Origin: an uncultured Bacilli bacterium
Lineage (GTDB): Bacteria > Bacillota_I > Bacilli_A > RF39 > UBA660
Assembly (NCBI GenBank): GCA_944358145.1
Contig: CALVQO010000001.1
Location: 1 to 63,034 of the forward strand
DNA: 63,034 nucleotides
Direction: 5' to 3'
Shown: positions 36,949 through 54,863 of the stretch, piece by piece
Layout: each line of letters starts with the position of its first letter
Numbering within the stretch: the stretch's first letter is position 1
Position numbers and translations under genes: made by a program
The notes under the pieces: model-generated
Told to the model about the DNA's origin: nothing
What the model saw: only the letters and a program-made list of their open reading frames with translations
The model's database searches: none

Positions 36949-36974
36949 AAAAAGCAACTTGTTGGTTGCTTTTT
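36949..36974. terminator. bidirectional terminator
   Basis: AAAAGCAAC-TTGTTG-GTTGCTTTT between convergent genes. Confidence 0.7.
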
Positions 36975-37755
36975 ATTTTAATAATTTCTTTTCTATATAA
37001 GTTATGATTTTATATAGAACAAAAGAAATAATAATTAATATGACTATACCACTCATTACCATATTTAAGTTAAATACTTGAGTTCCATAGATAATTAAAT
37101 AACCAAGGCCACTTTTACTAACTAAAAATTCACCCATAATTACACCAATTAGAGTCATGGATATATTTAGTTTTAAACTAGATATAATAGTTTTATAGGA
37201 AGCGGGTATAGTTAATTTAAATAAGATGTCAAATCTTGAAGCGTTAAATGTTTTAAATAGTTTAATTAAGTCTTTATCAATATTATTAAAACCATTATAA
37301 ATTGACATAATTCCTACGATTAAATTAATTAGGAGAGCCATAACAATAATTGATTTGGTGTTAGCTCCGGCTATAATAATAATTAATGGACCTAGTGCTA
37401 CTTTGGGTAGGCTGTTTAACATTGTTAAATAAGGGTCAACTATTTTATTTAAAGTTTTAAATTCATAAAGAATAATGGCTATGATAAAACTTAGGGTTAT
37501 TCCTAAAATGAAGGCTATTAGTGTTTCATATAAAGTTGTTAAGATATGACCAATTAAGTTATAATTAAGATAGAGATTTATTATGCTTTCTATTACTTTA
37601 GAAGGGGATGAAAAGATAAAAGGGTTTATTATTTTATATTTGCTTAATAATTCCCAAATGATTAAGAATCCTACTAATATTAATATTTGAAAAGTGATAA
37701 CAATTATTTTTTCTTTTCTTATTTTTTTTAAATAATTTTTGTGTTCTTTACTCAT
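36973..37755 (-). CDS. ABC transporter permease (NitT/TauT family)
   Basis: 6 TMs and the BPD-type EAA-like loop LNSLPKVALGPLIII. Overlaps the ATPase gene. Confidence 0.8.
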   Translation of the reverse strand: MSKEHKNYLKKIRKEKIIVITFQILILVGFLIIWELLSKYKIINPFIFSSPSKVIESIINLYLNYNLIGHILTTLYETLIAFILGITLSFIIAIILYEFKTLNKIVDPYLTMLNSLPKVALGPLIIIIAGANTKSIIVMALLINLIVGIMSIYNGFNNIDKDLIKLFKTFNASRFDILFKLTIPASYKTIISSLKLNISMTLIGVIMGEFLVSKSGLGYLIIYGTQVFNLNMVMSGIVILIIISFVLYKIITYIEKKLLK

Positions 37756-38494
37756 GAAACATAAGATCCTTCCAAATTAAATCATAATAATTAGCAAAAT
37801 TTTTATCTTTTCTGTTTTCAATTGGTGTTCCTTCTTTTTCTCTTTTAATTTTATAAATATTTTTAATGGTACATGGTCTATCACTTAATACGATTACTCT
37901 ATCTGAAATACTTATTGCTTCGGCTAAATCATGAGTAACCATTAGAGCTGTTTTCCCTTCCTCTTTAATAATTTTATAAACATCATCACTTACCTTTAAT
38001 CTTGATTGGTAATCTAGTTTTGAAAATGGTTCATCAAGAATTAATATGTCTGGTTTAAGTGCTAGAGTACGAATTAAAGCTACTCTTTGTCTCATTCCTC
38101 CTGATAATTCAAAAGGACGTTTATCCATAAATTCTAATAATCCATATTTTTTAAATAAATCTTTTACATAGGCTATGTTTTCTTCTGTTTTTTCTTTTTT
38201 TATTTCTAAACTTAGTAGGGCATTGTCTATTACTTTCCTCCAAGATAACATGGAATCGCTTTGAAGCATATATCCTAGTTTTAGATTTTCTTTAAGTTCA
38301 ATATTTCCTTTAGTTAGATTATCCATATTCGTTAATATATTTAAAAGGGTTGATTTACCACAACCTGATGGCCCTACAATAGATACAAATTCACCTTCAT
38401 ATAAATCAAATGAGATATCCTTTATAGCTTCTATTTCATCTTTTTTATTGTAATAAACTTTGTTTAGATTTTTAACACTTAATAATTTATTCAT
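37748..38494 (-). CDS. ABC transporter ATP-binding protein (NitT/TauT family)
   Basis: Walker A GPSGCGKST, signature LSGGMRQR, Walker B ILILDEP. Confidence 0.9.
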   Translation of the reverse strand: MNKLLSVKNLNKVYYNKKDEIEAIKDISFDLYEGEFVSIVGPSGCGKSTLLNILTNMDNLTKGNIELKENLKLGYMLQSDSMLSWRKVIDNALLSLEIKKEKTEENIAYVKDLFKKYGLLEFMDKRPFELSGGMRQRVALIRTLALKPDILILDEPFSKLDYQSRLKVSDDVYKIIKEEGKTALMVTHDLAEAISISDRVIVLSDRPCTIKNIYKIKREKEGTPIENRKDKNFANYYDLIWKDLMFHE

Positions 38495-39371
38495 CTAAAT
38501 TATGAATTAAATCACTATAAGGGACATAATCTTCAAGTAAATTGTTGTCAATTAACATATCTTGTAAATTAGTAAAACTACTCTCTGTTATATATGGTGT
38601 AGATAGCCATGAATCATATTTTTTATAATTATCAATGATGGTAATGATATCATTTAGAGCACTATCTGGAAATTGTGGTAATATTACATTTGCAGTAGTT
38701 TGGCTATCATTATTTAGAACGAATTCTAAACCTTTAGCGATAGCTCTAGTAAAACCACTTAATAATTCTTCATTGTTTTCTAAATAGCTTTTACGAGTAT
38801 AGAAGGCTGTATATGGTACTTCACCAGAAAGTCTTCCAATAGAATCAACAATACAAGAATCTGATACGTTTACTACTGTTGTTGCAGTAGGTTCAAATAG
38901 ATTTACATAGTCTCCAATTCCACCAATAAATGATCCAGATAGACTAGCAAAATCAATTGAGTAATTTACATTAATTTTATTTACATCAATACCAGCATTT
39001 TTCATGGCGTTTAAGAAGTTAACTGCAGGCATTCCTCCAGCACGACCAACAAGTATTTCACTACCATAAAGGTCAGTAAGTTCAAATTCACTTGAACAGT
39101 CTCTTGCTAAAATGAATTGTCCATCTCTTTTAGTAAGTCCTGCAAAAGTTACTAAATAATCTTTTTCACCACCAGCATAAACATAAATAGATGATTCAGT
39201 ACCAGCAAAACCTACATCAACAGTATCAGACAAGACTGCTGCACTAACTTTGTCTGCACCACTAGTTAAGATTAAATCAATTTCTATTCCTTCCTCTTCA
39301 AAATAACCATTTTCAATTGCTACATACAACGGAGCATAAAAAACACTATGTGTTACTTCTGCTACCATCAC
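38487..39371 (-). pseudogene. NMT1/SsuA-like substrate-binding protein gene, 5-prime truncated by element insertion
   Basis: The frame starts inside the mature domain (..AEVTHSVFYAPLYVAIENGYFEEEG) with no signal peptide or lipobox. An in-frame stop lies 10 codons upstream at 39402-39404. The recombinase gene end overlaps its first 26 nt. Confidence 0.7.
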
Positions 39372-41052
39372 ATTGTGGACACTTTTGCTTAGAAGAAGAG
39401 CCTATAAGATTTATATACAGATTTTCTCCATCGGATTCTACAGAACTAATTAGCATTTTAATCATCAATCTTTTTTCAACGATATCTAATGTATCAAATG
39501 ATTCCATATAATTTTTAATCATGTCTAATGCAATTTTTGCCATTTGTTTTTGGTCTATTTCAGCATCAATTTCTTTATTCATTTCAGCTATTCTTTTTTC
39601 TATTTCATTATTTTTGGATTTTAAATCTTTAATTTGAAGTGCAACTTCGTTAATTATTTCAGGATCTATAATTGCCATTCTATCTATTAATGTTTCAATT
39701 TTCATTTTATTTTTAGTAAAAGTAGCATTTAAGGTTTGTAATTCAGTTTGTTTTTTTGTTGATTCTTTTTCACGACCTGATGCCAAATCCTCTAATCGTT
39801 TCATAAATTCACTTTTTGGAGAAGTTATTTCTTTAAGTTTTTGTATAACTAGTTTATCTGTTTCTATTCCATTAATATTTTTACATTGGCATTGTTTCTT
39901 TCTACTTTTATCTTTTAATTCACATAGATAACTAAAATTTCTTTCTCCATTTGAAGCGATGGAATTTCTTAATCTTGGTCGCATATAACTTCCACAGTGT
40001 TTACATTTTATTATGCCTGATAATATAGATGTGTTTTGTTGAGGAGCTCGTAGTCGTTTGTTTTGATTGTTTGTTATTAAATTCCATACACTTATAAATT
40101 GATCGCTAGTAATTAAACCATTATGTTTACCAACTGCAATAATCCATTCATTAATATCTTTAAATGATTTTGCTTTTCCTGTAATTTCTAATCTTTTATT
40201 ATAAGCTATAAGCCCTAATTTTTTGTCATAAATATTTTTTTTATTTTGCTCATTGCTATTATGATATATAGTAGCACCTTTTTCTTCAAAAAAATTGTTT
40301 ATTTTCTCATCTGCTATAACATATACTGGATTTTTAAAAATTGTGACTAAAGAAAATCTACTAAAGTTATTTCCATTTCTTGTTTTAATACCATTATTTA
40401 ATAAATAAGTTTCTAATTTTGATAATCCTTTTAATTCTAACATTTTTGTCCATAGTAATTTAATTGTTTCAGCTTCTTCAGGAATAACATCTAATTTATA
40501 TAAACTTCTTTTTTTACCATCTATATCTATAGTTTCTATTTTTTGTGATTTATATCCTAAAGGAGTATTTCCACCTAACCATCTTCCTGTTTTTGCAAGT
40601 TCATACATATTATCCCTTATTCTTTCTGCAATAGTATCTCTTTCTAATTGTGCAAAAACAGATGATATCATAAGCATTGCAACACCCATTGGAGTCGAAG
40701 TATCAAAATTTTCTGTTACTGATATAAATTTTACATCATATTGCAATAATTCATTTTTTAAATTACAAAAATCCGCTACATTTCTACTTATTCTGTCTAG
40801 TCTATAAACAATAACACATTGAATTTTGTTTTTCTTGATATCAGTCATTAATTTTTGTAATTGGGGTCTATTAGTATTATATCCTGTAAATCCTTCATCA
40901 GAATATATTTTAATATCTTCATCTTTTGCATTAAATTTTGTTATTAAAGTATTTTTACAATATTCTATTTGATTATCGATACTTTCGCCTTTACCTGTAA
41001 ATTTTGATTTTCTTGCATATACACCATAATATTTTTTTTCGTTATTTTCCAT
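39346..41052 (-). CDS. large serine recombinase (integrase of the element)
   Basis: N-terminal resolvase domain YGVYARKSKF..GESIDNQ with the catalytic Ser, a recombinase domain, Cys-rich zinc ribbon (CKHCGSYM ... C..C) and a coiled coil. 568 aa from ATG 41052. Confidence 0.9.
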   Translation of the reverse strand: MENNEKKYYGVYARKSKFTGKGESIDNQIEYCKNTLITKFNAKDEDIKIYSDEGFTGYNTNRPQLQKLMTDIKKNKIQCVIVYRLDRISRNVADFCNLKNELLQYDVKFISVTENFDTSTPMGVAMLMISSVFAQLERDTIAERIRDNMYELAKTGRWLGGNTPLGYKSQKIETIDIDGKKRSLYKLDVIPEEAETIKLLWTKMLELKGLSKLETYLLNNGIKTRNGNNFSRFSLVTIFKNPVYVIADEKINNFFEEKGATIYHNSNEQNKKNIYDKKLGLIAYNKRLEITGKAKSFKDINEWIIAVGKHNGLITSDQFISVWNLITNNQNKRLRAPQQNTSILSGIIKCKHCGSYMRPRLRNSIASNGERNFSYLCELKDKSRKKQCQCKNINGIETDKLVIQKLKEITSPKSEFMKRLEDLASGREKESTKKQTELQTLNATFTKNKMKIETLIDRMAIIDPEIINEVALQIKDLKSKNNEIEKRIAEMNKEIDAEIDQKQMAKIALDMIKNYMESFDTLDIVEKRLMIKMLISSVESDGENLYINLIGSSSKQKCPQCDGSRSNT

Positions 41053-41112
41053 AACAATCAACTCCTATGTCATTGATTATTATATCACATCATGGTATCA
41101 TAAGGAATCTTT

Positions 41113-41140
41113 TTTAAAAAAAATAGTTTATAAAAAACTA
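41113..41140 (-). terminator. terminator after the NUDIX gene
   Basis: Minus strand TAGTTT-loop-AAACTA followed by T8. Confidence 0.5.
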
Positions 41141-41578
41141 TTTAATAGAATAACCTAATTTCTCTAATGCTAGTATGGTAAATGGAGATAGTTGTTTCTT
41201 GTTTAATTCATTTATGCTATACCAATTTGCACCGTCTGAATCTAGTCCATCTGCATCATTTTTTAAAGTATTCTCATTAGTATCTACTGTATATAAGATA
41301 CCTACGTGATGTAAATCTTCCCATAAATCAGGTTCCATTTCCCACTTAATATTAGTAGCAACAGCATCAAGTAATTTGTAGTTAGTTATGCCTATTCCAG
41401 CTTCTTCCATTATCTCTCTTTTTAAAGTTTCAAAAGGTTGTTCAGTATGTTCAATCCCGCCACCTGGTAGATCTAGCTTTCCTTTATAACCACCTCTAGC
41501 TTTTCTTACAAGGGCAATTTTATTATCACTAATAATTATACCATATGCTCCTACATGAGTTTTAACAATTGTTTCCAT
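41138..41578 (-). CDS. NUDIX hydrolase
   Basis: Nudix box GGGIEHTEQPFETLKREIMEEAGI. The METIV start is 8 nt after AAAGGA. Confidence 0.85.
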   Translation of the reverse strand: METIVKTHVGAYGIIISDNKIALVRKARGGYKGKLDLPGGGIEHTEQPFETLKREIMEEAGIGITNYKLLDAVATNIKWEMEPDLWEDLHHVGILYTVDTNENTLKNDADGLDSDGANWYSINELNKKQLSPFTILALEKLGYSIK

Positions 41579-41859
41579 TGTTTTCATCCTTTCTTTTACT
41601 ATTTTAACATAAATACAAGCGAGATGGCAGTAATATTTCACTTATGTGTGTACGTGGAACTTTAGCCAAGTGGTAAGGGTAAGGCAGGGGACTTTAATTA
41701 TTTTTATTGCCTAAAAATCAAAATTGACAGATTATTGTTTCAACAATACAAAATAAATAAAAATAATTTGCAATAAAATATATTATTTTAAATATTATTA
41801 TACATTTAAAAAACTCTTAAAATTAAAATTTTAAGAGTCAAATATTTCTTTAAAAATTA

Positions 41860-42963
41860 TTAATTTTTCTTTTTCCTAGTAAGAGTAATTAGAGGTACCA
41901 GATACTCATTTTCAGTTAAACCTGAATGATTAGATAATAGCTCTTTTCCATATCTTCTATATTTAAGATTCTTATCACTTATAGCTATTGCAATAAAATT
42001 TCCTAGACAAGATTTAAACATATTGTGATTAATACCTAATCCAAAAAGCTGAAGTGATAAAATATCTTCTTGCTTTAATAGTATAAAGTTTGAACCAAAT
42101 TGCTTTTCAAATTCAGTTTTAAAGTAATCAATTTTATCTTCTTTAATAAATAGCATACACGCTCTAGAGTCTATTGAAGTTGTCTGAGATAAACAATTAA
42201 AAAGATTAGGGTAATCTTCAAGATAAATATAACTTGAGTTCGTTAATCCATGATCAGCAGTTATAAGTATCAGACTATCATTTAAACTATTGTATAAATA
42301 TTTTATTGTTTTTTCTATCAACTTCAAATTCTCTTGTGTTTCAAAAGATTCCGTTCCTGTTTTATGAATAATTGAATCAGGATTTTCGTAATAAGCGTAA
42401 ATAAAATTTCTCTCATCGTTATCACATAATTGTATAATTTTTTCACACATATCATCTAATCCATTATAATGAGTTCCGGCATAAGGTGATAGATAAGTTG
42501 CATTAAATATTGTTTGTGCATTAATTAAATCAAAAATAGTAGTATAAGGGAAATACTTCATACCTATATTTTCAGGAAATAAATTTTTCGTATCTTTCTC
42601 TGTATTTAAAAACAAAGTTACAACTTTATCAATAGGTTTGATATAATTATCCCATCCAAGCCAACAATGTTGATTTGGATATAATCCAGTAATAATAGAA
42701 GTGGTGGCGGCTGTTGTAGTGGTTGGAAAAACAGAATATAATGTCTTTTTTATATTGCTAAATAATAGAGGACAGCTTTTTGAATATGTTTTAAGTAAAT
42801 TCATGCCCATTCCATCACATAAAATCAAAATAACATTTTTAGGCTGATTTCTTAACAAAATTTCATCTATCTCAAAATTAGAGTCGTTGATAGCTTTTAA
42901 GCCAAAATATTTTAATATGGAATTTGGAATTCCAACTATCGATTCTTTATAGTTTATAAACAT
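41860..42963 (-). CDS. alkaline-phosphatase-superfamily metalloenzyme (NPP/PglZ-like phosphodiesterase or phosphatase)
   Basis: ILILCDGMG, FPTTTTAATTSIITGLYPNQH (nucleophile Thr region), NPDSIIHKTG, ITADHGL and SNHSGLTENEYLVPL. Its ATG directly abuts the stop of the viperin gene (TAGATG). Confidence 0.7.
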   Translation of the reverse strand: MFINYKESIVGIPNSILKYFGLKAINDSNFEIDEILLRNQPKNVILILCDGMGMNLLKTYSKSCPLLFSNIKKTLYSVFPTTTTAATTSIITGLYPNQHCWLGWDNYIKPIDKVVTLFLNTEKDTKNLFPENIGMKYFPYTTIFDLINAQTIFNATYLSPYAGTHYNGLDDMCEKIIQLCDNDERNFIYAYYENPDSIIHKTGTESFETQENLKLIEKTIKYLYNSLNDSLILITADHGLTNSSYIYLEDYPNLFNCLSQTTSIDSRACMLFIKEDKIDYFKTEFEKQFGSNFILLKQEDILSLQLFGLGINHNMFKSCLGNFIAIAISDKNLKYRRYGKELLSNHSGLTENEYLVPLITLTRKKKN

Positions 42964-43788
42964 CTATCTGTAAAATCTTTCAAATGCTCTTTTTCTGACT
43001 AAATGATTTGTTAAGTCTATATTTTTAATGCACTCATCAATAGAACTTTCTAAAATGTTACAAGTTACTTTTCCAGCATTATCTTTTAAATCTCCATTTG
43101 GAAAAATGCTGAAATATGTAGTTTTAAATTCTTCAAAATCATTAAAATCTACCTGAGTATCCGTTATAGGCATTTTTTTAATTATTTCTGTTAGATTTAA
43201 ATATTCTTGATCACTTATGTTAAATTCTTCTTGATTATCAACAGCTTTATATGTTATTGGATAATATCTAAAAATTTTCCATCTTTTAATATCATAATGT
43301 TTCAAAATTTCCCAAATTAGTGGGATATGATTTAAATTTTGCTTAGTAGCCACTGTATTTACTTTTAAGTTAATTTTGCCATTAAATCTACTTAAATTTT
43401 TAATCGCTTTTCTTAAATGTTCTTTGCCTCTACCTACTTTTATATGGTATTCTTCACTAGGCGATTCAATATCAAAAGTAATCCAGTCAAATAAAGAAAT
43501 AATTATTTCTGACATCTCATCATTTATAAGCAGTCCATTTGTAGTTAATGAAAGTAAAATGCTTGGCTTTTTTTCTCTAATATATCTTGCAAGTTCAAAT
43601 AGTCCTTCATATAGTAATGGCTCGCCACCTGCAAAAGTGATTTTTTCTACTCCATGTTCAATTAATTTATCAGCAATTTTTTTGTTATCTTCTAGTGATA
43701 AATCTTCTGATAATGTTCTATAGCAGAACGTGCAGTTTTCATTACATTTTTCAGTAATGTTCCAACATACAGAATAAATTTTATTCAT
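42964..43788 (-). CDS. prokaryotic viperin homolog (pVip), radical SAM
   Basis: It aligns by eye block-for-block with human viperin. VCWNITEKCNENCTFCYRT matches VNYHFTRQCNYKCGFCFHT. GVEKITFAGGEPLL matches GMEKINFSGGEPFL. FDIESPSEEYHIKVGRG matches ISCDSFDEEVNVLIGRG. IKRWKIFR matches VRWKVFQ. Confidence 0.8.
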   Translation of the reverse strand: MNKIYSVCWNITEKCNENCTFCYRTLSEDLSLEDNKKIADKLIEHGVEKITFAGGEPLLYEGLFELARYIREKKPSILLSLTTNGLLINDEMSEIIISLFDWITFDIESPSEEYHIKVGRGKEHLRKAIKNLSRFNGKINLKVNTVATKQNLNHIPLIWEILKHYDIKRWKIFRYYPITYKAVDNQEEFNISDQEYLNLTEIIKKMPITDTQVDFNDFEEFKTTYFSIFPNGDLKDNAGKVTCNILESSIDECIKNIDLTNHLVRKRAFERFYR

Positions 43789-43874
43789 TTTTCCTCCTTT
43801 TTTCTGAATATTTTACTATAATATTGCAATTTGTCAAGTTAAGATTTATAATAATAGTGATTTGGGGGATTTTT

Positions 43875-44414
43875 ATGATAGGACTAAAAACTGATATGGT
43901 AGAATTACTTCCATATGATTATACTTGGAAAGATGAATTTCAAAAAATGAAAAAAGATATTGAAATGGCATTAAATGGTTATACTTTCGATATTCAACAT
44001 GTTGGTAGCACTTCAATTGAGGGATGCCCAGCAAAACCAGTTATTGATATTAATATTGGTATTGAGTCGTTAGAATATGGAAATCAATTAGTTCCTTTGT
44101 TAATAAATATAGGTTATATTTATAAAGGCGATGATGGTATACCTGGAAGACACTATTTTAAAAAGCAAGAAAATGGTGTTACTGTATCTCATATTCATAT
44201 GTGTCCAATAGGCGATGAAATTTGGAAAAATCAAATTTTGTTTAGAGATTATATGCGAGAACATCCCGAACAACTACAAGAATACATAGAATTAAAGAGA
44301 AAATTAGCTATTTTATATCCTACAGATCGTGCTAGCTATTCTTTAGGCAAGAAAAATTTTATTGAAAATATTTTGGTAGAAGCAGAAGCTTTAAAAAGAA
44401 GCAGAAAAAAATAG
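43875..44414 (+). CDS. GrpB family (nucleotidyltransferase-fold) protein
   Basis: VELLPYDYTWKDEF ... IQHVGSTSIEGCPAKPVIDI is the GrpB signature. ATG 43875 follows GGGGGA. Confidence 0.8.
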   Translation: MIGLKTDMVELLPYDYTWKDEFQKMKKDIEMALNGYTFDIQHVGSTSIEGCPAKPVIDINIGIESLEYGNQLVPLLINIGYIYKGDDGIPGRHYFKKQENGVTVSHIHMCPIGDEIWKNQILFRDYMREHPEQLQEYIELKRKLAILYPTDRASYSLGKKNFIENILVEAEALKRSRKK

Positions 44415-44426
44415 GAGGTTATATAT

Positions 44427-44906
44427 ATGAATTCTGATATAACATTTGAAAGTGAAAATATGGTTTTTAATTTTCGAGTAGCTACTGTTATTAAAAATGG
44501 TGATAAAATATTGGTACAGAAAGATGATCGGGTTTCTCATGTCACTTTACCTGGTGGAAGATGTTCTTTAGGTGAGGATACTACTGAAACTTCAGTAAGA
44601 GAATTTAAAGAAGAAACTGACATTAATTGCTTATTTGTAAAATCACTAGGTATGATAGAAAATTTTTTCGTATCCTCTTTTAATGGAAAAAAATATCATG
44701 AAATTTTAATGATTAATGAAATAAAATTCGTTGATCATAATTTATATTCTATGAAGGAAATTCCAAATATTGAAGAAAAGAAAAAAGAGCATTTAAAATT
44801 TGTTTGGATGACTCAAGAAGAATTGAAAAATTCCAATTTCAAGCCAAACATAATTTTAGAAATAATTAATAATGATGGCTTTACTCATTTAATTAATAAG
44901 GATTAA
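44427..44906 (+). CDS. NUDIX hydrolase (second copy, divergent)
   Basis: Nudix box PGGRCSLGEDTTETSVREFKEETD. RBS AGGAGG. Confidence 0.85.
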   Translation: MNSDITFESENMVFNFRVATVIKNGDKILVQKDDRVSHVTLPGGRCSLGEDTTETSVREFKEETDINCLFVKSLGMIENFFVSSFNGKKYHEILMINEIKFVDHNLYSMKEIPNIEEKKKEHLKFVWMTQEELKNSNFKPNIILEIINNDGFTHLINKD

Positions 44907-44919
44907 ATGAGTTTTTTAA

Positions 44920-45213
44920 TTTTATGGTGTACTTTTTATTGCTTTAAGCGGTAAAGAATGTTTGGAGTTAGTTCAAAAAAATAATTATGATATTATTTTT
45001 TTGGATATTATGATGTCAGAAATGAGTGGAGTAGAAACGTTTAAATTGTTAAAAGAAAAGAATCAATTTGATACCCCTGTAATTGCTTTGACTGCCGATG
45101 CTGACATTGATTCTAAAGAGAAATATTTGGCTTTAGGATTTGATGGTTATATTCCTAAACCTATAAATATTGAATTATTAAAAAAAGGATTAAGTAATTG
45201 GCTTAATCAATAA
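44920..45213 (+). pseudogene. 5-prime-truncated response-regulator receiver (REC) domain fragment
   Basis: The frame reads ..ALSGKECLELVQKNNYDIIFLDIMMSEMSG...PVIALTADA...GFDGYIPKPI. It lacks strand beta-1 with the acidic pocket, and a stop lies immediately upstream. Confidence 0.6.
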
Positions 45214-45299
45214 TAAAGCATGAAATTTTGTTTAAAAAGTTGGTGTTTTGCAAATGAGGATTTATACAAAAGATCCAATATAATTATTAATTTCTTTTG

Positions 45300-45746
45300 T
45301 TATTTTCTACCGCATAAGCTATCTAAATTTACTCTATATAATTCTGATAAAGCTATTAACATATCAATTTTAAATGTTATTTTGCCATTAAAATATCTAA
45401 ATACAGTAGATTTGTTGCACTTAAGAAATTCAGCAATATCTTCGTATGTGTGATTATATTTAATTTTACATAATAAAAGATTTTCTGAAAGTTTATTATA
45501 ATTGATTTTTTGATATGCAACTTTTTTAGAAGTTTTTTCTAAGCCTAAAATATAAGCTAAACTAACATGGTAATATAAAGCTAGCTGATCTGCTACAGAT
45601 AAAGGAACCATACTCCTTTGATTTTCCCATGTAGAATATGTTGCTCTTTTACAATTTAATATCTGAGCAAGATCTTCTTGCTTTAATTCATTATCTAATC
45701 GTAATTTCTTTAAGTTATTGAGATACATAAACATCACTACAAACAT
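45300..45746 (-). CDS. XRE-family regulator with two HTH domains
   Basis: LRLDNELKQEDLAQILNCKRATYSTWENQ, plus a second HTH YEDIAEFLKCNKSTVFRYFNGK. Confidence 0.7.
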   Translation of the reverse strand: MFVVMFMYLNNLKKLRLDNELKQEDLAQILNCKRATYSTWENQRSMVPLSVADQLALYYHVSLAYILGLEKTSKKVAYQKINYNKLSENLLLCKIKYNHTYEDIAEFLKCNKSTVFRYFNGKITFKIDMLIALSELYRVNLDSLCGRK

Positions 45747-45858
45747 TTTCTCATGTTATTATGTGCATTCACAATTATGCGACGTGTACGCAACAAATTT
45801 AACTATACTTAACATTGATTTAATGTTATAATAAAAAAGAATAGCAATATTTATGTTG

Positions 45859-46128
45859 TTATTCTTCTATATCAGCCATGTCTACTCTTGAAGGCAACTT
45901 TTTAAAATCACGTTTAACATAAAACTCGAAAGGCTCCACACCCAATGCTTTTGATAGCTTCTCCAATTTATCAAAAGAAGGAGTATGATGCCCAAGTTCA
46001 AGTTGACTTATATAAGTTACACTAGTATCTGTAAGTTCAGCAACTTTTTCTTGAGTATATTTTTTACGAAATCGAAAATATTTAACATTGTTGCCAAACA
46101 CTTCGTTTAATTTCAATCGTATCACCAA
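45859..46128 (-). CDS. XRE-family HTH transcriptional regulator
   Basis: RFRKKYTQEKVAELTDTSVTYISQLELGHHTPS is a typical HTH_3 motif. Confidence 0.8.
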   Translation of the reverse strand: MVIRLKLNEVFGNNVKYFRFRKKYTQEKVAELTDTSVTYISQLELGHHTPSFDKLEKLSKALGVEPFEFYVKRDFKKLPSRVDMADIEE

Positions 46129-46259
46129 CTTTTACATTATTATGATACGATTTTTATAAAAAATACTCCAATAAGTATTAGTGCAAAAGTAGGCATGCTT
46201 CTTATAGATTAAGTATTTTATAAAATAACTATTATATAATAGAAGGGGAATCGTATCAT

Positions 46260-46961
46260 ATGGCAAATAAAAAATGTGCAATAAAAAAAGATTTAAAAAA
46301 TATTGTTTTAAATAAAAATTATGATTTAATAATTTATAGATTAATTGGTAATAACTATTTAGATTTTTTATTTTCAAAATCTGACAATAAGTGGTTAATT
46401 GATAATTTGACAAAAAAGGATATAATTTCAGAAGAACAAATTGTTAAATTATTAGATAGGCTAATTTTTTTGTTAAAAAGTGATTTTATAAGTACATTAG
46501 CACATCAAGAGTTTATTATAGAAAAAATAATTATATCTAACAAAGAATTAATAGGGGACTATTTAAAAATAAAAAATAATTTAAACAATTCAGAATTTAA
46601 TGATTTTATTAATCAAAAAATTTATAATATAATTGTAAGTAATTTTTGTAAGAATATAAAATATATACCTGAATTAAAGGAGTTGGTAACTAAAACAGGT
46701 ATAAGTTTAAATAAAAAAGATCATAATAACTTATTAAAAATAAAAAAACTTTTAATGGATATTATTAATTGTAATCAAAAAGAATATCATGCCATTTATC
46801 TTTTTAGTGATATTGATTATGATATTAAATATGAAATTAAAAGAAATAAAATAGATTCTAAAAATATTATAAATCAAATAATTAGCAATTATATTTATAG
46901 ATATTCTATACTTTTAAATAACTATTATAATAAAAAGCAATATCTAGAAATATTTGAATAA
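46260..46961 (+). CDS. hypothetical protein (N/K/I-rich)
   Basis: 233-codon ORF in about 20 percent GC DNA, with RBS AAGGGGA. No recognisable motifs. Confidence 0.5.
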   Translation: MANKKCAIKKDLKNIVLNKNYDLIIYRLIGNNYLDFLFSKSDNKWLIDNLTKKDIISEEQIVKLLDRLIFLLKSDFISTLAHQEFIIEKIIISNKELIGDYLKIKNNLNNSEFNDFINQKIYNIIVSNFCKNIKYIPELKELVTKTGISLNKKDHNNLLKIKKLLMDIINCNQKEYHAIYLFSDIDYDIKYEIKRNKIDSKNIINQIISNYIYRYSILLNNYYNKKQYLEIFE

Positions 46962-47218
46962 ATATTAGTGGGAAATTTGTGTGTTAGTCCATACCAAACA
47001 ATATAAATCTTATATGTTGAAACTCTTAACACACTTGGGAGGGCGGGGAACGAAGAAGCAAATCGAAAGATTCTCTTTCTATTATCTACTACACGCATAG
47101 ATATATTTGCTTCTTTTTTATTTTAACTTTTTATTATATGAAAGTTTAGGACTTTTTAAGAGAACTATTTGCTTTATTATATTAATGTGCTAAAATATTA
47201 TAAAAAAGTGGTGATTTT

Positions 47219-48298
47219 GTGGAAAAAAATAAAGTAGGTAAATTTCTTGTACAATTGCGTAAAGAACAAAATTTGACACAGTATGATATTGCTGATCAAA
47301 TCCCTATTAGCAGAGAAGCTGTTTCAAAATGGGAACGAGGAATTACTAAGCCTAATAAATCTAGTTTGGAAAGATTAAGTGAAATTTTTGATATTTCGGT
47401 TGAAGAAATTTTAATAGGTAAAAGATTAAGTAAAAATAAGAAAGAAGAAATAAAAAAATTAACTTTGGAACTATATGGTAGCAAATTGTTTTTAAAAAAG
47501 GTAGTTATTGCATTATTTCTTTTTCTAGTTTTAATTATTATTTTATTTTTATTGTATTATTTTTTATCAAATTATAATTCTATAAAAGTATATACTATTA
47601 ATAATAGTAGTAATAATACAATTATTAATGATGGAATTTTAGTATTAACAAAAGATAATATATATTTCAGTATAAGTAATGTTCAGGCTAAAAAAACTAT
47701 CAGAATGATTGCACTATATTATATGGATGATGAAAGTAAAGAATTAATATATTCCACTGAAGATTGCTATATTAACTTATATGATTTTTATGGTTATAAT
47801 TCTTATTTTGATTATAACAAAATGGATTATATTATTGATAATTTATATTTGGATATTAGTTATGATGACAATGAAATAGAAACTATTAAATTAAATTTTA
47901 TAGAAGATTTTGCTAATAATAAAATTTATAATGATAAAGAAAAAAATATTGTTGATAATAAATTATCAGATAGTAATTTTAGTGCTGAAAAAATAAAAAG
48001 TGTCTTTAAATTAATAGATGATGTATATATTTATGAAGATAAAAAAAATAATTTAATTTTTTCATATATTGAGGATGCTAATTTATTAAATTTAATCTCA
48101 AGTGAAAAAAATAAATCATTTGAATGGTATTATTATTTTGATTCCAATACTTTAGAATATAATGAATATCAAGATCAAAATTTAGTTAATTCATTTAATT
48201 ATTCTAATAATAATATTATATGTAATATTAATAATTGCCAGAAAGATATTAAAAAAGTCAGTTATTTTTATGACAATATTAATAATATTTTAGAGTAG
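47219..48298 (+). CDS. membrane-anchored XRE-family regulator (HTH, TM, extracellular domain)
   Basis: N-terminal HTH (LRKEQNLTQYDIADQIPISREAVSKWERG), one TM (VVIALFLFLVLIIILFLLYYF) and a 230-aa outer domain. Confidence 0.7.
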   Translation: MEKNKVGKFLVQLRKEQNLTQYDIADQIPISREAVSKWERGITKPNKSSLERLSEIFDISVEEILIGKRLSKNKKEEIKKLTLELYGSKLFLKKVVIALFLFLVLIIILFLLYYFLSNYNSIKVYTINNSSNNTIINDGILVLTKDNIYFSISNVQAKKTIRMIALYYMDDESKELIYSTEDCYINLYDFYGYNSYFDYNKMDYIIDNLYLDISYDDNEIETIKLNFIEDFANNKIYNDKEKNIVDNKLSDSNFSAEKIKSVFKLIDDVYIYEDKKNNLIFSYIEDANLLNLISSEKNKSFEWYYYFDSNTLEYNEYQDQNLVNSFNYSNNNIICNINNCQKDIKKVSYFYDNINNILE

Positions 48299-48365
48299 GT
48301 CCCTAAAAAGTCCTATCTTTTTTTTGCTTTTATGATTATAATTTGTTTAAAAGAATGGAGGAATT

Positions 48366-49088
48366 ATGAAAAGAAAAAGTTTGTATTTTATTTGCTTAGT
48401 CAGTTTATTTTCTTTTACATCTCATGTACAAGCAAAAGAAGTTTATTACGTTAATCAAAATAATGTCGAATTTACAAAGGAAGAATATGATTTTATATCA
48501 TATATGTTTTGGGATGGTGCACAAAATCAAATGAGTTTAAATGATTATGATGATTTTGTAAATTCAAATATTATGAATGGTGAGTTAGATTCACAAATAT
48601 ATTATGATTTACCATTAACACGTTCTACATCTATCGAAGATGCTAATAGAACTTTAAAGATTGTTAAAAGTTGCTCATCAAATTGTTTTATTTCAGTTAC
48701 TCTTACATGGAAAAACTCTCCTACAGTTAGAAGTTACGATGTAATGGGTGCTTATCTAAGTGGTACAAGTTTAGTAAATACTCCTACTACTTCCATAACT
48801 GCTAGTGGTACAACAACAACTTATCGAGATATTAAAAATGATACTAATGGTTTTGGTGTATCAATGAAGTTACCTACTTATGGAACATCAATGGTTATTA
48901 ATCAGAGTTTTAGAGTAAACAAAGGTGGAACAGTATATGCTAGTTATCAACACGCTATGAAAAGTATTAGCTTAGCAAATAGTAAAAATTATACAATTTC
49001 TCGCAATGGATATGGTGGCGTATTTCAATTTAGTGGTACTGCATTAACTACTTATGACAGAATGAATGGTGTAAATATTTCTGTTTAA
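48366..49088 (+). CDS. secreted hypothetical protein
   Basis: Signal peptide ..TSHVQA/KE, a beta-rich S/T-rich body, RBS GGAGG. Confidence 0.6.
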   Translation: MKRKSLYFICLVSLFSFTSHVQAKEVYYVNQNNVEFTKEEYDFISYMFWDGAQNQMSLNDYDDFVNSNIMNGELDSQIYYDLPLTRSTSIEDANRTLKIVKSCSSNCFISVTLTWKNSPTVRSYDVMGAYLSGTSLVNTPTTSITASGTTTTYRDIKNDTNGFGVSMKLPTYGTSMVINQSFRVNKGGTVYASYQHAMKSISLANSKNYTISRNGYGGVFQFSGTALTTYDRMNGVNISV

Positions 49089-49190
49089 AAGCATAGATTA
49101 TGCTTTTGATGAAAAGAAGGGAGGATTTGCTAATGTAAAATATATTAATGTTCATTATTTAATAAGTATTAAAAAGGAAAGGTAGAAAAA

Positions 49191-50339
49191 ATGAAAAGAA
49201 AAAAAATTATATTAGTAGTTGCCCTCGTAATGATATTTTTAATAGGGACTATAAGTGCTGGTGCAACTCAAAATAGTAGCTTGTTATTAAAAAACGCTCA
49301 ACAGGCAGATCTTGCAAGTAAGATACAAGAAAAGATTGAAGAAGAATCCTATCCGGATTACTTTGGTGGAATCTATATAAGTGATGATTCTAATCATGTT
49401 GTACTTCAGATTGTAAAAGATAAAATTCCAAAATCCAAAAGTTCTAATGAATATACAACGTTTAAAAATGTTTCTGAAATGGATAGTGATATTGAAATAG
49501 AATATGTTGATAATTCTTATAAAGATTTGAATGATATCAATAATAAATTGATAGAATATTTTTCTTCTGAAGATGCAGATATATCAAATCTAAATGCGCA
49601 TTATATAGATGTTATTAAAAATCAAGTTGTAATAGAATTAAAGAGTGACAAAGCAGATAAAATTAACGTAATCAAAGAAAAAGCTTTTGATACGAATACA
49701 ATTTCTAAAATGAATGTGAATTCAAATTTAATTAAAATTGTCCAAAAGGATTCTACAAATAATGATTTAGCTTTAAAATCAGGGCAAAAAATTTCAACAT
49801 CTCTTGGTTCTTGTTCAATGGGGTTCAGAGTGAAAGTTAATGGCGAAAAAGGTTATATTACTGCAGCACATTGTTTTGAGGGAAATGGAGATAGTTCAAC
49901 CGGTGGAAAAGTTCAATGGTGGAAATATAGTGGCAAAGTAGATGCAGCTTTTGTCAAAAAAGGCGCACTTAATATTTTTTCAGATCCTTCAAATGAATTA
50001 GCATATACAAGCGGTGATATAAAAGAGTTAAATGCCAGTGTATCAGCTATTCCATCAGTTAATATGACAATTGCAAAAGCAGGTTTTAAAACTGGATATA
50101 CAACTGGAAAAATTAAAAACACAAATTATTCTGGTGTATACAATGGTACATATTTTACTGGATTAATAGCTAGTGATATGCATACAGACAATGGAGATAG
50201 TGGAGGACCAGTATTTATTCCAATGAATATTAATGGTGGTGCCACTTTGTTGGGTATAGTGAAAGGAACTTCATCTTATGGTAGTGCCTTTGTAAGTGTA
50301 GATAACATTTTTGCTGAATTATCATTCGTTAGATATTAA
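49191..50339 (+). CDS. secreted S1-family (chymotrypsin/alpha-lytic-type) serine protease with N-terminal propeptide
   Basis: Signal peptide, an about 170-aa pro-region, and a catalytic triad: ITAAHC, VDAAFV, DNGDSGGPVF. Confidence 0.85.
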   Translation: MKRKKIILVVALVMIFLIGTISAGATQNSSLLLKNAQQADLASKIQEKIEEESYPDYFGGIYISDDSNHVVLQIVKDKIPKSKSSNEYTTFKNVSEMDSDIEIEYVDNSYKDLNDINNKLIEYFSSEDADISNLNAHYIDVIKNQVVIELKSDKADKINVIKEKAFDTNTISKMNVNSNLIKIVQKDSTNNDLALKSGQKISTSLGSCSMGFRVKVNGEKGYITAAHCFEGNGDSSTGGKVQWWKYSGKVDAAFVKKGALNIFSDPSNELAYTSGDIKELNASVSAIPSVNMTIAKAGFKTGYTTGKIKNTNYSGVYNGTYFTGLIASDMHTDNGDSGGPVFIPMNINGGATLLGIVKGTSSYGSAFVSVDNIFAELSFVRY

Positions 50340-50383
50340 TAATAGAATTATGTTATAATATTATTAAAGGATGGCATTATGTT

Positions 50384-50908
50384 ATGAATAAAAATATGCT
50401 CTTGATAATGTTATTAGGATTACTAGTAATTTTGCTAATAATTGGATGTTGCAACATAAAAAATAAAAGGATTGATAATCAACTAGTTGAAATTAATAAT
50501 AGAATAACGGATTATTTTTTGATGGACGACATAGAATATACCAATTTAAGTTTTAATTATATTGATAGTAGCCAAAATAAAGTAATTGTTGGATTATATG
50601 AAAATACGAAAGAACAGCAAGATGAATTTAAAAGAATTGTTGTCAATTCTAATCTTATAGTTTTTGTTGATAGTAAAGGAATTGATAATCAACTAGTTGA
50701 AATTAATAATAGAATAACGGACTATTTTTTGATGGACAACATAGAATATACCAATTTAAGTTTTAATTATATTGATAGTAACCAAAATAAAGTAATTGTT
50801 GGATTATATGAAAATACGAAAGAACAGCAAGATGAATTTAAAAGAATTGTTGTCAATTCTAACCTTATAGTTTTTATTGATGGTAAAGAAAATATAGACT
50901 TAACATAA
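50384..50908 (+). CDS. lipoprotein made of two tandem protease-prodomain-like modules
   Basis: Lipobox LIIGC. Two 70-aa repeats (IDNQLVEINNRITDYFLMD.IEYTNLSFNYIDS.QNKVIVGLYENTKEQQDEFKRIVVNSNLIVF) resemble the propeptide segment LNDINNKLIEYFSSEDADISNLNAHYIDVIKNQVVIELK of the adjacent protease. Confidence 0.7.
   Translation: MNKNMLLIMLLGLLVILLIIGCCNIKNKRIDNQLVEINNRITDYFLMDDIEYTNLSFNYIDSSQNKVIVGLYENTKEQQDEFKRIVVNSNLIVFVDSKGIDNQLVEINNRITDYFLMDNIEYTNLSFNYIDSNQNKVIVGLYENTKEQQDEFKRIVVNSNLIVFIDGKENIDLT
50471..50890 (+). repeat. 2 x 210-bp near-identical tandem duplication (coding)
   Basis: 50471-50680 and 50681-50890 differ at only a handful of positions. Confidence 0.9.
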
Positions 50909-50924
50909 ATCAAAAAATAATCTT

Positions 50925-50967
50925 AAGGGCTATTGGGAGTAAATTCTCATAGCCTTTTTTATTTTTT
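50925..50967 (+). terminator. intrinsic terminator
   Basis: AAGGGCTAT ... ATAGCCTT stem followed by TTTTATTTTTT. Confidence 0.7.
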
Positions 50968-51140
50968 CAAATTCCTTGTAGTATTTGCACGAGGAAACTA
51001 ATCAAAATAGATTTTTTATAAGATGCTATATGTGGTATGATTCTTTGAATAAAATTATTGTATCACAAAAATTCTTTTTAACTTTTCAAAAATTAAAAAA
51101 CTGCTAAGAAATTAATTATTTAATTTCTCAACAGTTCTTT

Positions 51141-51926
51141 TTAATTTCTTGATCTTATCCTAATCTTATAATTATTTTCATTCAAATGCACATCTCTTTT
51201 AGCATAACTATATAAATTTTCTATTGCATTCATTTTTTCATGTTGTGTTTTTTGATTATTTAAATCTAGTGCATCAATGTATAAATTTATAAATTCTTGC
51301 TCTGGTACAGTTTTAAAAATTGCCTCTCTATATCCAGTTTGATCTGTATATAATTTTAAAGTTTTTGAAGTAGATATCTCGGGGAAACCATATAATCTAT
51401 GATAAAACTTTTTTATTTTCTCAATAGTTAAATGATATAGATGATTAAAGTACAAATCGCCATGTTCATACAAAGATTTTAAGTCTATCATTCTATTATT
51501 AATTATAGAAACCATTTCTTTAGCTTCTTCATCACTTAAGCAAGGCATTGGTAGTGAGTATAATTCTCTAATGTATTCTTGAAGTTTATGAACTCTGCCA
51601 TTACGATCAAAAATAATAATTCCATGTCCTATCATGCTTAGTAGAACATTGCTTTGGCTCTCAAAATCTTTAATCGCTCTAGCATAATAATCTAATATTG
51701 GTTTTTCAAAGTATTCTATTCTAATTCCATCTACTAAATCAATACCTCGTGCTAAATTATTTGGATCTTCACTATTTGTAATTACTTGCAAATCCAAATC
51801 GGAAGTTTTAGTAGCATATCCAGTTGCTACACTTCCATAAAATACAACACCCTCAATATTCTTATTTTCAAGATACCCCTTTTCATTCAAGAAAGTTTTA
51901 ATTACTTCCGTGAATGTTTTTGTCAT
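51141..51926 (-). CDS. pol-beta-superfamily nucleotidyltransferase (ANT/Lnu-like architecture)
   Basis: GVVFYGSVATGYATKTSDLDLQV is the GS...D.D NTase motif, followed by a helical C-terminal domain. 261 aa. Confidence 0.65.
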   Translation of the reverse strand: MTKTFTEVIKTFLNEKGYLENKNIEGVVFYGSVATGYATKTSDLDLQVITNSEDPNNLARGIDLVDGIRIEYFEKPILDYYARAIKDFESQSNVLLSMIGHGIIIFDRNGRVHKLQEYIRELYSLPMPCLSDEEAKEMVSIINNRMIDLKSLYEHGDLYFNHLYHLTIEKIKKFYHRLYGFPEISTSKTLKLYTDQTGYREAIFKTVPEQEFINLYIDALDLNNQKTQHEKMNAIENLYSYAKRDVHLNENNYKIRIRSRN

Positions 51927-52237
51927 TTTCCTTTACCCTCCAACTATTATAAATACATTATAATATATAAATTTTAAAAAAACTATACGTTTGCTTAAAA
52001 TAAACAACATTTTGCCTTAATTTTAATATTTTTCCTATTTTTTAATAGTTTAACGGTATTTAAACATATTTAAACAAATTTTATATACTTTCAAATAAAA
52101 TTTTTATATGGTTTTGTTGCATTTATTTTGTCAAGTGATAAAATATAGTAAAATCGAAGTAATTAGATGAAAATACGAATTTATTGGGTTATTATAAAAT
52201 AATAATCCAATTTTTTTAGGTAAAAATCTAAAAAAGT

Positions 52238-52267
52238 ATTGACATTTAAAATTAGTTCGGTTAGTAT
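52238..52267 (+). promoter_or_regulatory. putative promoter of the transfer/regulatory module
   Basis: TTGACA (52238-52243), 18 nt, TAGTAT (52262-52267), with TATAAA just downstream. Confidence 0.45.
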
Positions 52268-52323
52268 AAATACCCTGATGTAATTGCAGTGCTTATGTCA
52301 GGGGGATATAGGTGGTGGCAAAT

Positions 52324-52437
52324 ATGGGTAGAATTACATCAATATATTTTTGTGAATCTACAAATAATGAAGGATTTTTAAAAAGGAGCATTATCTTTAA
52401 TAGGATTAATGCCCCTTTTTTTATGGTACGGAGGTGA
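52324..52437 (+). CDS. possible 37-codon leader peptide ORF
   Basis: ATG 6 nt after GGTGGTGG. The ORF reads through the terminator hairpin, and its TGA lies inside the GGAGGTGA RBS of the downstream gene. Confidence 0.3.
   Translation: MGRITSIYFCESTNNEGFLKRSIIFNRINAPFFMVRR
52385..52422 (+). terminator. leader terminator/attenuator upstream of the ArpU-like gene
   Basis: GGAGCATTA ... TAATGCCCC (8 of 9 bp) followed by T7, located 20 nt before the next start codon. Confidence 0.55.
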
Positions 52438-52442
52438 TTTAA

Positions 52443-52898
52443 ATGGAATTTCATGAAGAATTTTTTGATAACTTACTATTAGATGCTGAAGAAATAAAAT
52501 GTTACTCTTATGAAAAATGTCGAGAAGAAGTAGAAAAGAAAATCAAAAAATATTTGAGAGCCCATTTTAAGTTTATTAACCTAATCCCACCAAAAATAAC
52601 TGTAAACTATGAATTTAGGTATGAAAGTTTTACTCCAAAGAAAATTGACAAAACTAGTGATTATGTTGCAGATAAGATTGATTCAGAAATGGAAGCACTA
52701 GAAATTTATAACAAACTAAAGCAAGTATGGAATAGACTTTCATATAACGAACGGGTTTACACTACTGAAGTTCTGATTTACAAAAAGTCAGAAAATTATG
52801 CTATTGATCATATGAAAAATGCAACAAGATATTTACTTGATCATATTAAGAAAAGCTGTATTATAAAACTTGCAATAGCATTTAATGTTGATGAGTAA
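52443..52898 (+). CDS. ArpU-family (sigma-region-4-like) transcriptional regulator
   Basis: About 150 aa. The C-terminal LSYNERVYTTEVLIYKKS.. segment resembles the ArpU/phage late-regulator pattern, and the gene heads a mobile-element operon. Confidence 0.5.
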   Translation: MEFHEEFFDNLLLDAEEIKCYSYEKCREEVEKKIKKYLRAHFKFINLIPPKITVNYEFRYESFTPKKIDKTSDYVADKIDSEMEALEIYNKLKQVWNRLSYNERVYTTEVLIYKKSENYAIDHMKNATRYLLDHIKKSCIIKLAIAFNVDE

Positions 52899-54810: not shown

Positions 54811-54863
54811 TAGTGCAAAATATTTAAATATTTGTTAAAATATAAGCAAATATGGAGGCTATT

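Follow-up and report, generated by a model that had tools for sequence, protein, structure and literature searches.

Why does a gene for the substrate-binding protein (SBP) of an ABC importer, in an uncultured bacterium of the RF39 lineage of Bacilli, begin inside its mature domain, and why does a gene for a large serine recombinase (LSR) run into its truncated end? The DNA in question, hereafter the window, is the entire 63,034-nt contig CALVQO010000001.1 (C1) of the assembly GCA_944358145.1, a metagenome-assembled genome (MAG) of 1.2 Mb in 116 contigs that is 78% complete. The answer very probably is that an integrative conjugative element (ICE), at least 38 kb long, has been integrated by its own LSR into the SBP gene of a NitT/TauT-type importer, and that the attachment site attP of this element lies inside a composite reading frame. 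The element continues past the right end of the window on two further contigs of the same genome, C49 and C51. The following features meet at the junction.

36973..37755, minus strand: ABC importer permease, 260 amino acids (aa), intact (Pfam BPD_transp_1, E = 3.9e-25; collinear with the permease of relatives)
37748..38494, minus strand: ABC importer ATPase, 248 aa, intact (Pfam ABC_tran, E = 3.4e-29; equal in length in the relative L002)
38487..39357, minus strand: 3' fragment of the SBP gene, host DNA, B' side of attR (Pfam NMT1, E = 1.2e-17)
39346..41061, minus strand: LSR (Pfam Resolvase, PF00239, E = 2.7e-35; Recombinase, PF07508, E = 2.4e-13; Zn_ribbon_recom, PF13408, E = 1.1e-9)
39358..39359, minus strand: crossover core dinucleotide, GA on the minus and TC on the plus strand, placed by the neighboring bases that segregate with their flanks in all attL and attR sites compared
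39360..39381, minus strand: P arm of attP, kept in attR and encoding the recombinase tail ..CPQCDGS(R), in dyad symmetry with the P' arm on C51

An earlier reading of this DNA from the sequence alone (the sequence-only reading) took the permease and ATPase genes to be intact and the SBP gene to have been split by a serine-integrase element. The first statement agrees with the 260- and 248-aa frames, their Pfam matches and their collinearity in relatives; for the second, the 5' fragment, the intact relatives, the clean rejoining of the flanks and the attachment sites all fit. The SBP frame (38487 to 39371, minus strand) encodes 294 aa from a GTG codon and has, as that reading noted, an in-frame stop 10 codons upstream, which leaves 304 open codons. 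Its residue 13 aligns with position 5 of the NMT1 profile, so that the frame starts at the edge of the mature domain. Since the homologous open frame comprises 333 to 367 aa in 22 species genomes of the same genus, the truncation is real and the position is not a natural start of the gene. The two closest relatives (91% identity) have an intact 340-aa SBP that starts MEYIKEEYILKKKIIAILIAIIL and has an N-terminal membrane anchor, after which comes ..TTIRLAEVTHSVFYAP..; the fragment in the window resumes at E-V-T-H-S-V-F-Y-A-P and lacks the 41 N-terminal codons.

When the same genome was searched with the start of a relative's SBP gene (its first codons and the region upstream of them), a single strong match was obtained, at positions 3351 to 3542 of C51 (82% identity). 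This 5' fragment includes the promoter region, an AGGAGG ribosome-binding site, a TTG start and 41 codons (MKKKIITILIAIILIIVIIITSIKLTHKEEENNELITIRLA) that end in ..ITIRLA, where element DNA adjoins it directly. The sequence-only reading had expected some 35 to 45 missing codons beyond the right edge of the window, carrying a signal peptide and a lipobox. The number was well judged and the truncation stands; the lipobox does not, as in this lineage the missing N terminus is an uncleaved membrane anchor without a cysteine, while some other hosts of the SBP family have a lipobox-like ..FIGC. Joining the two host flanks restores NELITIRLA|EVTHSVFYAP in frame, which matches eleven uninterrupted relatives. 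The genome has a single SBP match, with no second copy in the assembled contigs, and among the 24 species genomes of the genus that were searched the insertion is found only in this one.

Alignment to the uninterrupted relatives, as the sequence-only reading had proposed, defines attB, attL and attR and narrows the crossover from the predicted interval (39346 to 39402) to the dinucleotide at 39358 to 39359. On the minus strand of the window, attR reads ..tgtccacaatgtgatggtagca-GA-agtaacacatagtg.., and attL on C51 reads ..aaggcttgct-GA-tactaccctcacatcaaggaca... In relatives, attB has the form ..(a/c)ttgc(c/t)-GA-agtaac(t/c/g)ca(c/t)agtg..; the attB junction sequence is ..AGGCTTGCT-GA-AGTAACACATAG.. 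and that of attP is ..GATGGTAGCA-GA-TACTACCCTCAC... The rebuilt attP, tgtccacaatgtgatggtagca-GA-tactaccctcacatcaaggaca, has 22-bp arms with inverted symmetry at 17 of 22 positions (19 of 27 over 27 bp). In every junction read, the base 5' of GA varies at attL with the alanine codon of the host and is the element's A at attR; immediately 3' of GA, attL has a T from the element and attR an A from the host. Because these flanking bases segregate with their flanks, the exchanged core is exactly the 2-bp GA. The host site lies where the mature NMT1 domain begins and consists of the conserved codons that specify ..(R/K)(L/V)A|EVTHS... Judged by its sequence, this combination of a 2-bp core with imperfect inverted arms is the signature of an LSR.

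The recombinase beside this site comprises 571 aa from a TTG codon, or 568 aa, the length given in the sequence-only reading, from an ATG at 41052, which is the start used in database copies. Residues 14 to 161 cover positions 3 to 145 of the 145-position PF00239 profile, and the motif Y-x-R-K-S is present in 20 of the 20 homologues read. A stretch of about 150 heptad-like residues separates the zinc ribbon from the last strands. The best PHROG match is PHROG 95 integrase (2e-105), and there is a weak match to the structure of the TnpX N-terminal domain, 2mhc. All three LSR domains are retained in the integrated 568-aa open reading frame (ORF), and no other recombinase of this family is encoded in the genome. 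Integration into the SBP gene appears to have been catalyzed by the element's own recombinase.

Two points go beyond the sequence-only reading: the recombinase ORF crosses the crossover, and the ORF that opens the far end of the element shares this frame and has no start of its own. The overlap of 26 nt (39346 to 39371) between the recombinase gene and the SBP frame, which that reading reported correctly, includes the core. The last three sense codons of the recombinase (S-N-T) and its stop (39346 to 39348) are host DNA, and the tails of homologues vary with their hosts. In recombinases that are 66 to 100% identical to this one, the end encoded by the arm is conserved as ..CP(Q/R)x(D/E)GSR and is followed by SNT*, SNPQCFLCTYVCSN or SGSHYFLCSYVCCY, an out-of-frame reading of AEVTHSVFYAPLYVA, the DNA that codes for AEVTHSVFYAP. 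The conservation of the recombinase tail is that of the DNA arm. A zinc-binding role for the CPQC of this tail was considered and ruled out, as the cysteines vary (CPRSEGSR, SPQSDVSR).

In the excised circle, the recombinase frame would run ..CPQCDGSR|YYPHIKDIYELIRIVYNKVG.. and on for 174 more codons, to a total of 742 aa. These codons form an ORF on C51 that directly follows the core in the recombinase frame and encodes a tandem helix-turn-helix (HTH) protein of the XRE type; the far end of the element thus holds an alternative C terminus in frame. Gene callers start this ORF at M46. However, there is no ATG, GTG or TTG before codon 46 either here or in a 95% identical relative, and in two other lineages there is no canonical start before codon 54 or codon 63. 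Homologues of 154 to 168 aa cover 87 to 96% of the frame from crossover to stop, and in codons 9 to 45 the proportion of synonymous differences (pS, 0.49 to 0.84) exceeds that of nonsynonymous ones (pN, 0.21 to 0.44; dN/dS about 0.1 to 0.5). Because of this coverage and the excess of pS over pN, the HTH frame is real coding sequence from the core onward. When the element is integrated, the frame meets a stop supplied by the host, either at the core or just before it. Since the ORF begins within the P' arm and has no room for a promoter of its own, its expression would always depend on the upstream DNA, which is the host gene in the chromosome and the recombinase gene in the circle.

In an AlphaFold model of the HTH protein (pLDDT 82.5), residues 1 to 40 form a low-confidence helix and linker, and the confident tandem HTH fold begins at about residue 44. 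A fold search with this model retrieved generic XRE/Cro-type repressors (HipB, C-proteins, SinR and ImmR), with no excisionase or known recombination directionality factor among the matches, and searches of phage and plasmid collections yielded no match to the protein.

The same layout recurs in elements that use another target. Distant homologues of the HTH ORF (29 to 35% identity) are found at attL inside a sigma-factor gene (..TYAARCIEN|), next to an AA core and a similar P' arm. These elements are inserted at ..ARCIEN|EILM.. (loci L094 to L100, from seven species genomes of the same family, and L051, L052 and L054), and their recombinases are 44 to 51% identical to the one described here. 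These recombinases end in a codon xAA that is followed directly by a host TGA, produced from AA|T-GAA (N-E-I-L-M), and the start-less tandem-HTH ORF begins at the core codon. Seven of the sigma-gene elements (6.9 to 12 kb) have both ends on one contig. In all nine end pairs examined, i.e., those of these seven elements, of the element studied here and of G367, the recombinase and HTH frames are in register with no stop between them, giving composite ORFs of 732 to 758 aa. The poorly conserved recombinase tails, from the last strand of the domain to the arm, comprise 14, 16, 21, 31, 35 or 39 codons and are all open, in DNA of about 27% GC. The layout thus appears to be conserved in at least two element families, which differ in target gene and core. 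An in-frame ATG three codons upstream comes from host codons, A(R/K)C, at three metagenome loci and in L099, which is among the seven elements from genomes.

These observations suggest a mechanism in which only the excised circle would be able to make the full protein of about 742 aa, with recombinase and tandem-HTH parts. Integration would detach the DNA-binding tail and let the enzyme end on host codons at 568 aa, so that the element could read its own topology and switch the behavior of the recombinase or the regulator between the free and the integrated state. The two topological states probably yield different recombinase and regulator products, a simple form of integration-state sensing. 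We give an even chance to the stronger claim that at least two element families carry a composite gene for an LSR and a tandem HTH with an internal attP, expressed in full length only from the circle and acting as a topology switch. Whether the long form is the selected product is, in our view, about equally balanced.

The principal alternative is that the end ORFs are separate genes, and we consider it quite possible, if short of an even chance. The recombinase would then end at its first stop, the HTH gene would be driven by the host promoter, and the continuity of the frames would be a by-product of constraint on the arm. The HTH protein would start by termination-reinitiation after the ORF of the host 5' fragment, at a TTG, ATA or ATT near codon 11 or 12. 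Several observations point in this direction, count against the composite gene, or do both. A search of 1.84 billion representative proteins retrieved no natural recombinase-HTH fusion, the HTH relatives that it did retrieve are stand-alone proteins of 150 to 180 aa, and none of the top 120 recombinase homologues exceeds 592 aa. In several lineages, an ATG, TTG or GTG is found 5 to 15 codons after the core. The ORF of the host 5' fragment stops where it overlaps HTH codon 11 or 12 (TTGA in L023, TAATA here and TAATT in L032), and reinitiation at TTG, ATA or ATT, or the use of other noncanonical starts in these Mollicutes-like Bacilli, could allow translation of the HTH ORF in the integrated state. 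An AAGGA motif is present in the P' arm, 10 to 13 nt upstream. As the folded HTH domain starts near residue 44, a product initiated at M46 would, according to the AlphaFold model, retain it. Several recombinases have a stop of their own before the core. Finally, pattern scans of JGI metagenome and IMG/VR contigs found no assembled attP junction; three matches to the attP pattern were rejected as ordinary attL sites whose host sequence reads GTAGCA-GA.

Several other observations argue against separate genes. Wherever the HTH ORF is kept, recombinase tails of 14 to 39 codons are free of stops and in frame despite the low GC content. Three lineages lack a canonical start for 45 to 62 codons even though this segment is under purifying selection, and the position of the HTH start is not conserved. 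The layout is seen again where both the target gene and the core are different, and recombinases with their own stop occur where the HTH ORF is missing: across the order, an intact HTH ORF is present in the same genome for 11 of 14 read-through recombinases versus none or one of 7 own-stop recombinases (Fisher P = 0.001 to 0.016, with the reservation that the relatives are not independent and the MAGs are incomplete). A further pairing, of own-stop recombinases with HTH ORFs that have their own start, was dropped because G367 combines a read-through recombinase with a TTG-bearing HTH ORF.

The use of the SBP site extends well beyond this genome. At twelve attL loci, drawn from other metagenomes and from species genomes, the same arm is attached at ..(L/V)A-GA to SBP N termini that are quite unlike one another, some with the lipobox-like FIGC. 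A related recombinase is present in 21 of 401 genomes of the order, and in seven of them, including this genome, it abuts AEVTHS. Thus, to judge from these junctions, the entire recombinase family (40 to 100% identity) uses the SBP site in many hosts. It is well documented that LSR elements occupy conserved coding sites and that many LSR lineages can share a target gene (PMC10083194). The family also includes decayed members: in one widespread form, a CGA-to-TGA change six codons before the core leaves a 550-aa recombinase next to a 181-aa SBP stump without ABC genes, and a 7-kb mini-element has neither conjugation genes nor the HTH ORF.

Such remnants raise the question of whether the element in the window is itself a decayed, immobile island fixed in the lineage, the disruption being old and not reversible; the break that a contig gap makes in its coupling-protein gene would fit this explanation too. 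We nevertheless regard it as improbable. Contig L041, from another sample, carries the same recombinase with the same neighbors and, compared without gaps to positions 39164 to 51052 of the window, has 27 mismatches, all of them in the 194 nt of host SBP sequence, versus none in the 11,695 nt on the element side up to and including GA; the first mismatch lies 7 nt beyond the core, so that this comparison independently locates the boundary of the element. Because the element is identical while the flank differs at 27 of 194 positions, it appears to have entered recently into hosts whose target genes are about 14% divergent. On the attL side, contig L021 and C51 differ at 18 of the first 1,500 element positions and at 70 of 190 host positions. 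Moreover, only one of the 24 genomes of the genus has the insertion, the SBP 3' fragment, the ATPase gene and the permease gene are free of stops, and the relaxase, the VirB4-like ATPase, the recombinase and both attachment arms look intact. By this comparison, the element appears to have been mobile recently.

A third explanation is that the two ends come from different strains or elements, C51 (attL) and C1 (attR) having been brought together by binning or assembly. The genome is indeed fragmented and incomplete, and L021, a close relative, differs from C51 by about 1 to 9% in parts. C49 and C51 were assigned to the element by tblastn searches of the same genome with the genes of L021; the linkage of C1, C49 and C51 is thus deduced from related contigs (L021 and L041) across at least two gaps, which weighs against our overall reading. 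Even so, the two ends complement each other as halves of a single dyad-symmetric attP and a single host codon series, the genome has a single SBP match and a single recombinase of the family, the same attL and attR structures are found in independent assemblies, and seven related elements have both ends on one contig. An artifact of this kind is therefore very improbable.

With these contigs taken together, the insert adds up to at least 38 kb (23.7 + 9.0 + about 0.8 for a gap + 4.8 kb). The part inside the window includes the following features.

39360..63034, no strand assigned: the 23.7 kb of the ICE that fall within the window, the rest being on C49 and C51
41138..44906, no strand assigned: cargo genes for a NUDIX protein, an enzyme of the alkaline phosphatase superfamily, a viperin-like radical SAM enzyme, GrpB and a second NUDIX protein (Pfam)
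45300..48298, no strand assigned: regulatory region with three XRE-family HTH proteins, one of them membrane-anchored (Pfam HTH_3; conserved in L041)
53038..53790, plus strand: DNA methyltransferase (Pfam N6_N4_Mtase, E = 5.7e-30)
55830..58995, plus strand: surface adhesin with a thioester domain and six SpaA repeats, and a sortase (SpaA, 5.3e-84; TED, 2.6e-8; Sortase, 1.1e-14)
61537..62954, plus strand: TrbL/VirB6-like and PrgI/VirB3-like channel genes (Pfam TrbL_4, 1.2e-13; PrgI, 0.0017, a weak match)

The window part also includes an S1 protease block, a nucleotidyltransferase gene and a signal peptidase gene, and C1 ends 80 nt after the channel genes. The 9-kb contig C49 encodes a VirB4-like ATPase (TraG P-loop/AAA_10, 5.8e-21), an M23 peptidase, a MobL relaxase (3.3e-23) and the N-terminal part of a coupling protein (T4SS-DNA_transf, 2e-15; Pfam matches on C49 and C51), whose C-terminal end is found on C51 (positions 3543 to 8322), together with an ArdC-like protein, a 63-aa ORF, the tandem-HTH ORF and attL. 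In the related contig L021, attL and the genes for the HTH protein, ArdC, coupling protein, MobL and M23 peptidase are all on one piece of DNA. Genes for capsid, portal, terminase or tail proteins were seen neither in the 23.7 kb of the window nor on C49 or C51, and the gene content is that expected of an ICE rather than of a phage. A prophage with a serine integrase is accordingly a negligible prospect: large serine integrases are common in temperate phages and the best PHROG match is to a phage integrase family, but those structural genes are missing, a relaxase, a coupling protein, VirB4-, VirB6- and VirB3-like genes, a sortase with its adhesin and ArdC are present, and the phage and plasmid collections searched contain nothing that matches the HTH protein.

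The cargo block at 41138 to 44906 is located directly beside the recombinase gene and is identical in L041 (0 mismatches). The viperin-like enzyme scores 142 bits against NCBIfam viperin_w_prok, under the cutoff of 180. The viperin-like cassette appears from this comparison to be conjugative cargo that moves between hosts.

Excision by serine integrases usually needs a directionality factor. Every element includes the 63-aa ORF, which has no family match and is convergent to the HTH ORF, at the following positions.

C51, 4060-4251, minus strand
L021, 3561-3752
L038, 2651-2842
L048, 4719-4910

Even where the HTH ORF and the conjugation genes have been lost, as in decayed remnants and the mini-element, this ORF stays beside the recombinase. 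We regard it as a candidate recombination directionality factor. Elsewhere in the same genome, contig C21 (13396 to 14832) carries a second coupling-protein gene, 35% identical to that of the ICE, which indicates another conjugative or type IV secretion module.

Two other loci show unusual arrangements around the attachment site. In L043, a 2.2-kb contig with a coverage of 2.5, the HTH end adjoins the reverse complement of the SBP 3' fragment, followed by an AAA_14/DUF4143 gene; the near-symmetric arms may have taken part in an inversion or rearrangement, or the contig, with its low coverage, may be a chimera. In L070 (G081:C1, about position 345000), the recombinase tail ..DDFK continues as QNTHSLKSI*, with P'-arm-like sequence right after the core position and no HTH gene behind it, and the locus looks like an unrecombined or scarred attP-like site in the chromosome.

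As for the interrupted importer, the Pfam families of its SBP, ATPase and permease fit the NitT/TauT type. The NCBIfam matches all fall far below their cutoffs (SsuA_fam, 34 bits; SaoA, 178; SaoP, 84), and those of the permease to SaoP, SsuC and TauC are weak. No riboswitch or other Rfam family was found upstream of the SBP gene, and promoter and terminator scans gave hits at chance level in this AT-rich DNA and were uninformative. Because the SBP 3' fragment has no export signal and the binding protein is needed outside the cell, the importer should be inactive for as long as the ICE is integrated, and its function is predicted to be restored by precise excision. In the frame of this fragment, the P arm (39360 to 39371) reads GTG-ATG-GTA-GCA, so that start codons are supplied by the element, as they are in G367 and, in the form GTG-ATA, in the decayed remnant L038; the fragment might be translated from the element's GTG-ATG as a cytoplasmic protein.

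Directly downstream of the permease gene (35165 to 36948), the window contains two tandem paralogous genes with the ORF6N domain (287 and 292 aa), a domain typical of phage and mobile DNA; they lie outside the ICE as defined here. In another host (L048, 13307 to 15147), a second serine recombinase gene, which is smaller (396 aa) and lies on the opposite strand, cuts the permease of the same operon down to 215 aa, so that this operon has suffered two independent insertions.

The splitting of a gene by an LSR-encoding ICE is an ordinary kind of event. Among elements of Firmicutes, Tn5397 (TndX) and Tn4451 (TnpX) of clostridia are moved by an LSR at a GA dinucleotide, with relaxed or different target choice; circularization of Tn4451 was reported to create a promoter, and we know of no composite ORF across the joint in either element. 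The sigK-intervening (skin-type) elements, which are excised by a SpoIVCA-type LSR, are like the one described here in interrupting a gene at a conserved motif. In contrast to them, we see a full ICE in a transporter gene and a GA rather than an AA core, with nothing to suggest developmentally programmed excision.

The closest parallel is provided by the streptococcal and enterococcal ICEs inserted in rumA (ICE-r and vanG elements; Ambroset et al. 2016, PMC4701971; Srinivasan et al. 2014, PMC4120198), which are likewise conjugative, with a single terminal LSR, a GA core, imperfect inverted terminal repeats and insertion inside a conserved protein-coding gene. Their attR lies within the serine integrase gene (PMC4701971), so that the recombinase has no stop of its own, and the ORF at the opposite end, of about 100 to 115 codons, lacks a start, just as in our case. 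The end ORFs were described as fusions to rumA "of unknown significance" (PMC4120198), and the authors noted that the excised form must encode an integrase that differs in length and at its C terminus (PMC4701971 and PMC4120198). The layout of a recombinase without a stop and a far-end ORF without a start is thus already known in outline. In the present case, unlike the rumA ICEs, the target is an NMT1-type ABC substrate-binding gene, the hosts are uncultured gut Bacilli with small genomes, the far-end ORF is longer (165 to 174 codons) and encodes a tandem XRE-type HTH, the comparison with the far-end ORF there being one of layout, and neither end ORF shares the frame of the host gene. Because both are out of the host frame, fusion to the host gene cannot be the point of this arrangement, and what is conserved is the continuity between recombinase and HTH. 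The target gene with its attB, the host group, the ICE itself and the end ORFs out of frame with the host gene are new here.

Two systems based on tyrosine recombinases offer more distant parallels. In the phage Mx8, as cited in PMC4701971, attP lies in the integrase gene, integration replaces 112 C-terminal residues with 13 (IntP to IntX), and lower activity is reported for the integrated form. The presence of attP inside the integrase ORF and the exchange of the C terminus upon integration are shared with our element, to go by that account; the differences are that Mx8 is a phage with a tyrosine recombinase and that the part exchanged there belongs to the integrase proper, whereas here it is a separable HTH module. 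In the SSV-type ("suicidal," type I) archaeal integrases, which are tyrosine recombinases so far known only in archaea, attP is in the ORF and integration destroys the integrase (Badel et al. 2020, PMC7253208). There, too, the attachment site is in the integrase frame and integration partitions the gene between the two ends of the element; in our case, however, the catalytic LSR domains stay in one piece and only the C-terminal DNA-binding module is detached.

In summary, the finding accounts for a broken transporter gene and fixes, to the base pair, the limits of a mobile element of at least 38 kb. A new target gene and a new, well-defined attB/attP pair are thereby added to those of the LSRs, which are of practical interest for genome engineering, and the finding offers a clean natural test of an old unexplained observation in the rumA ICEs, the stop-less recombinase and the start-less ORF at the far end. 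If the long form is indeed made and behaves differently, it would represent a built-in sensor of the integration state for elements with serine recombinases, comparable to the IntP/IntX pair of Mx8.

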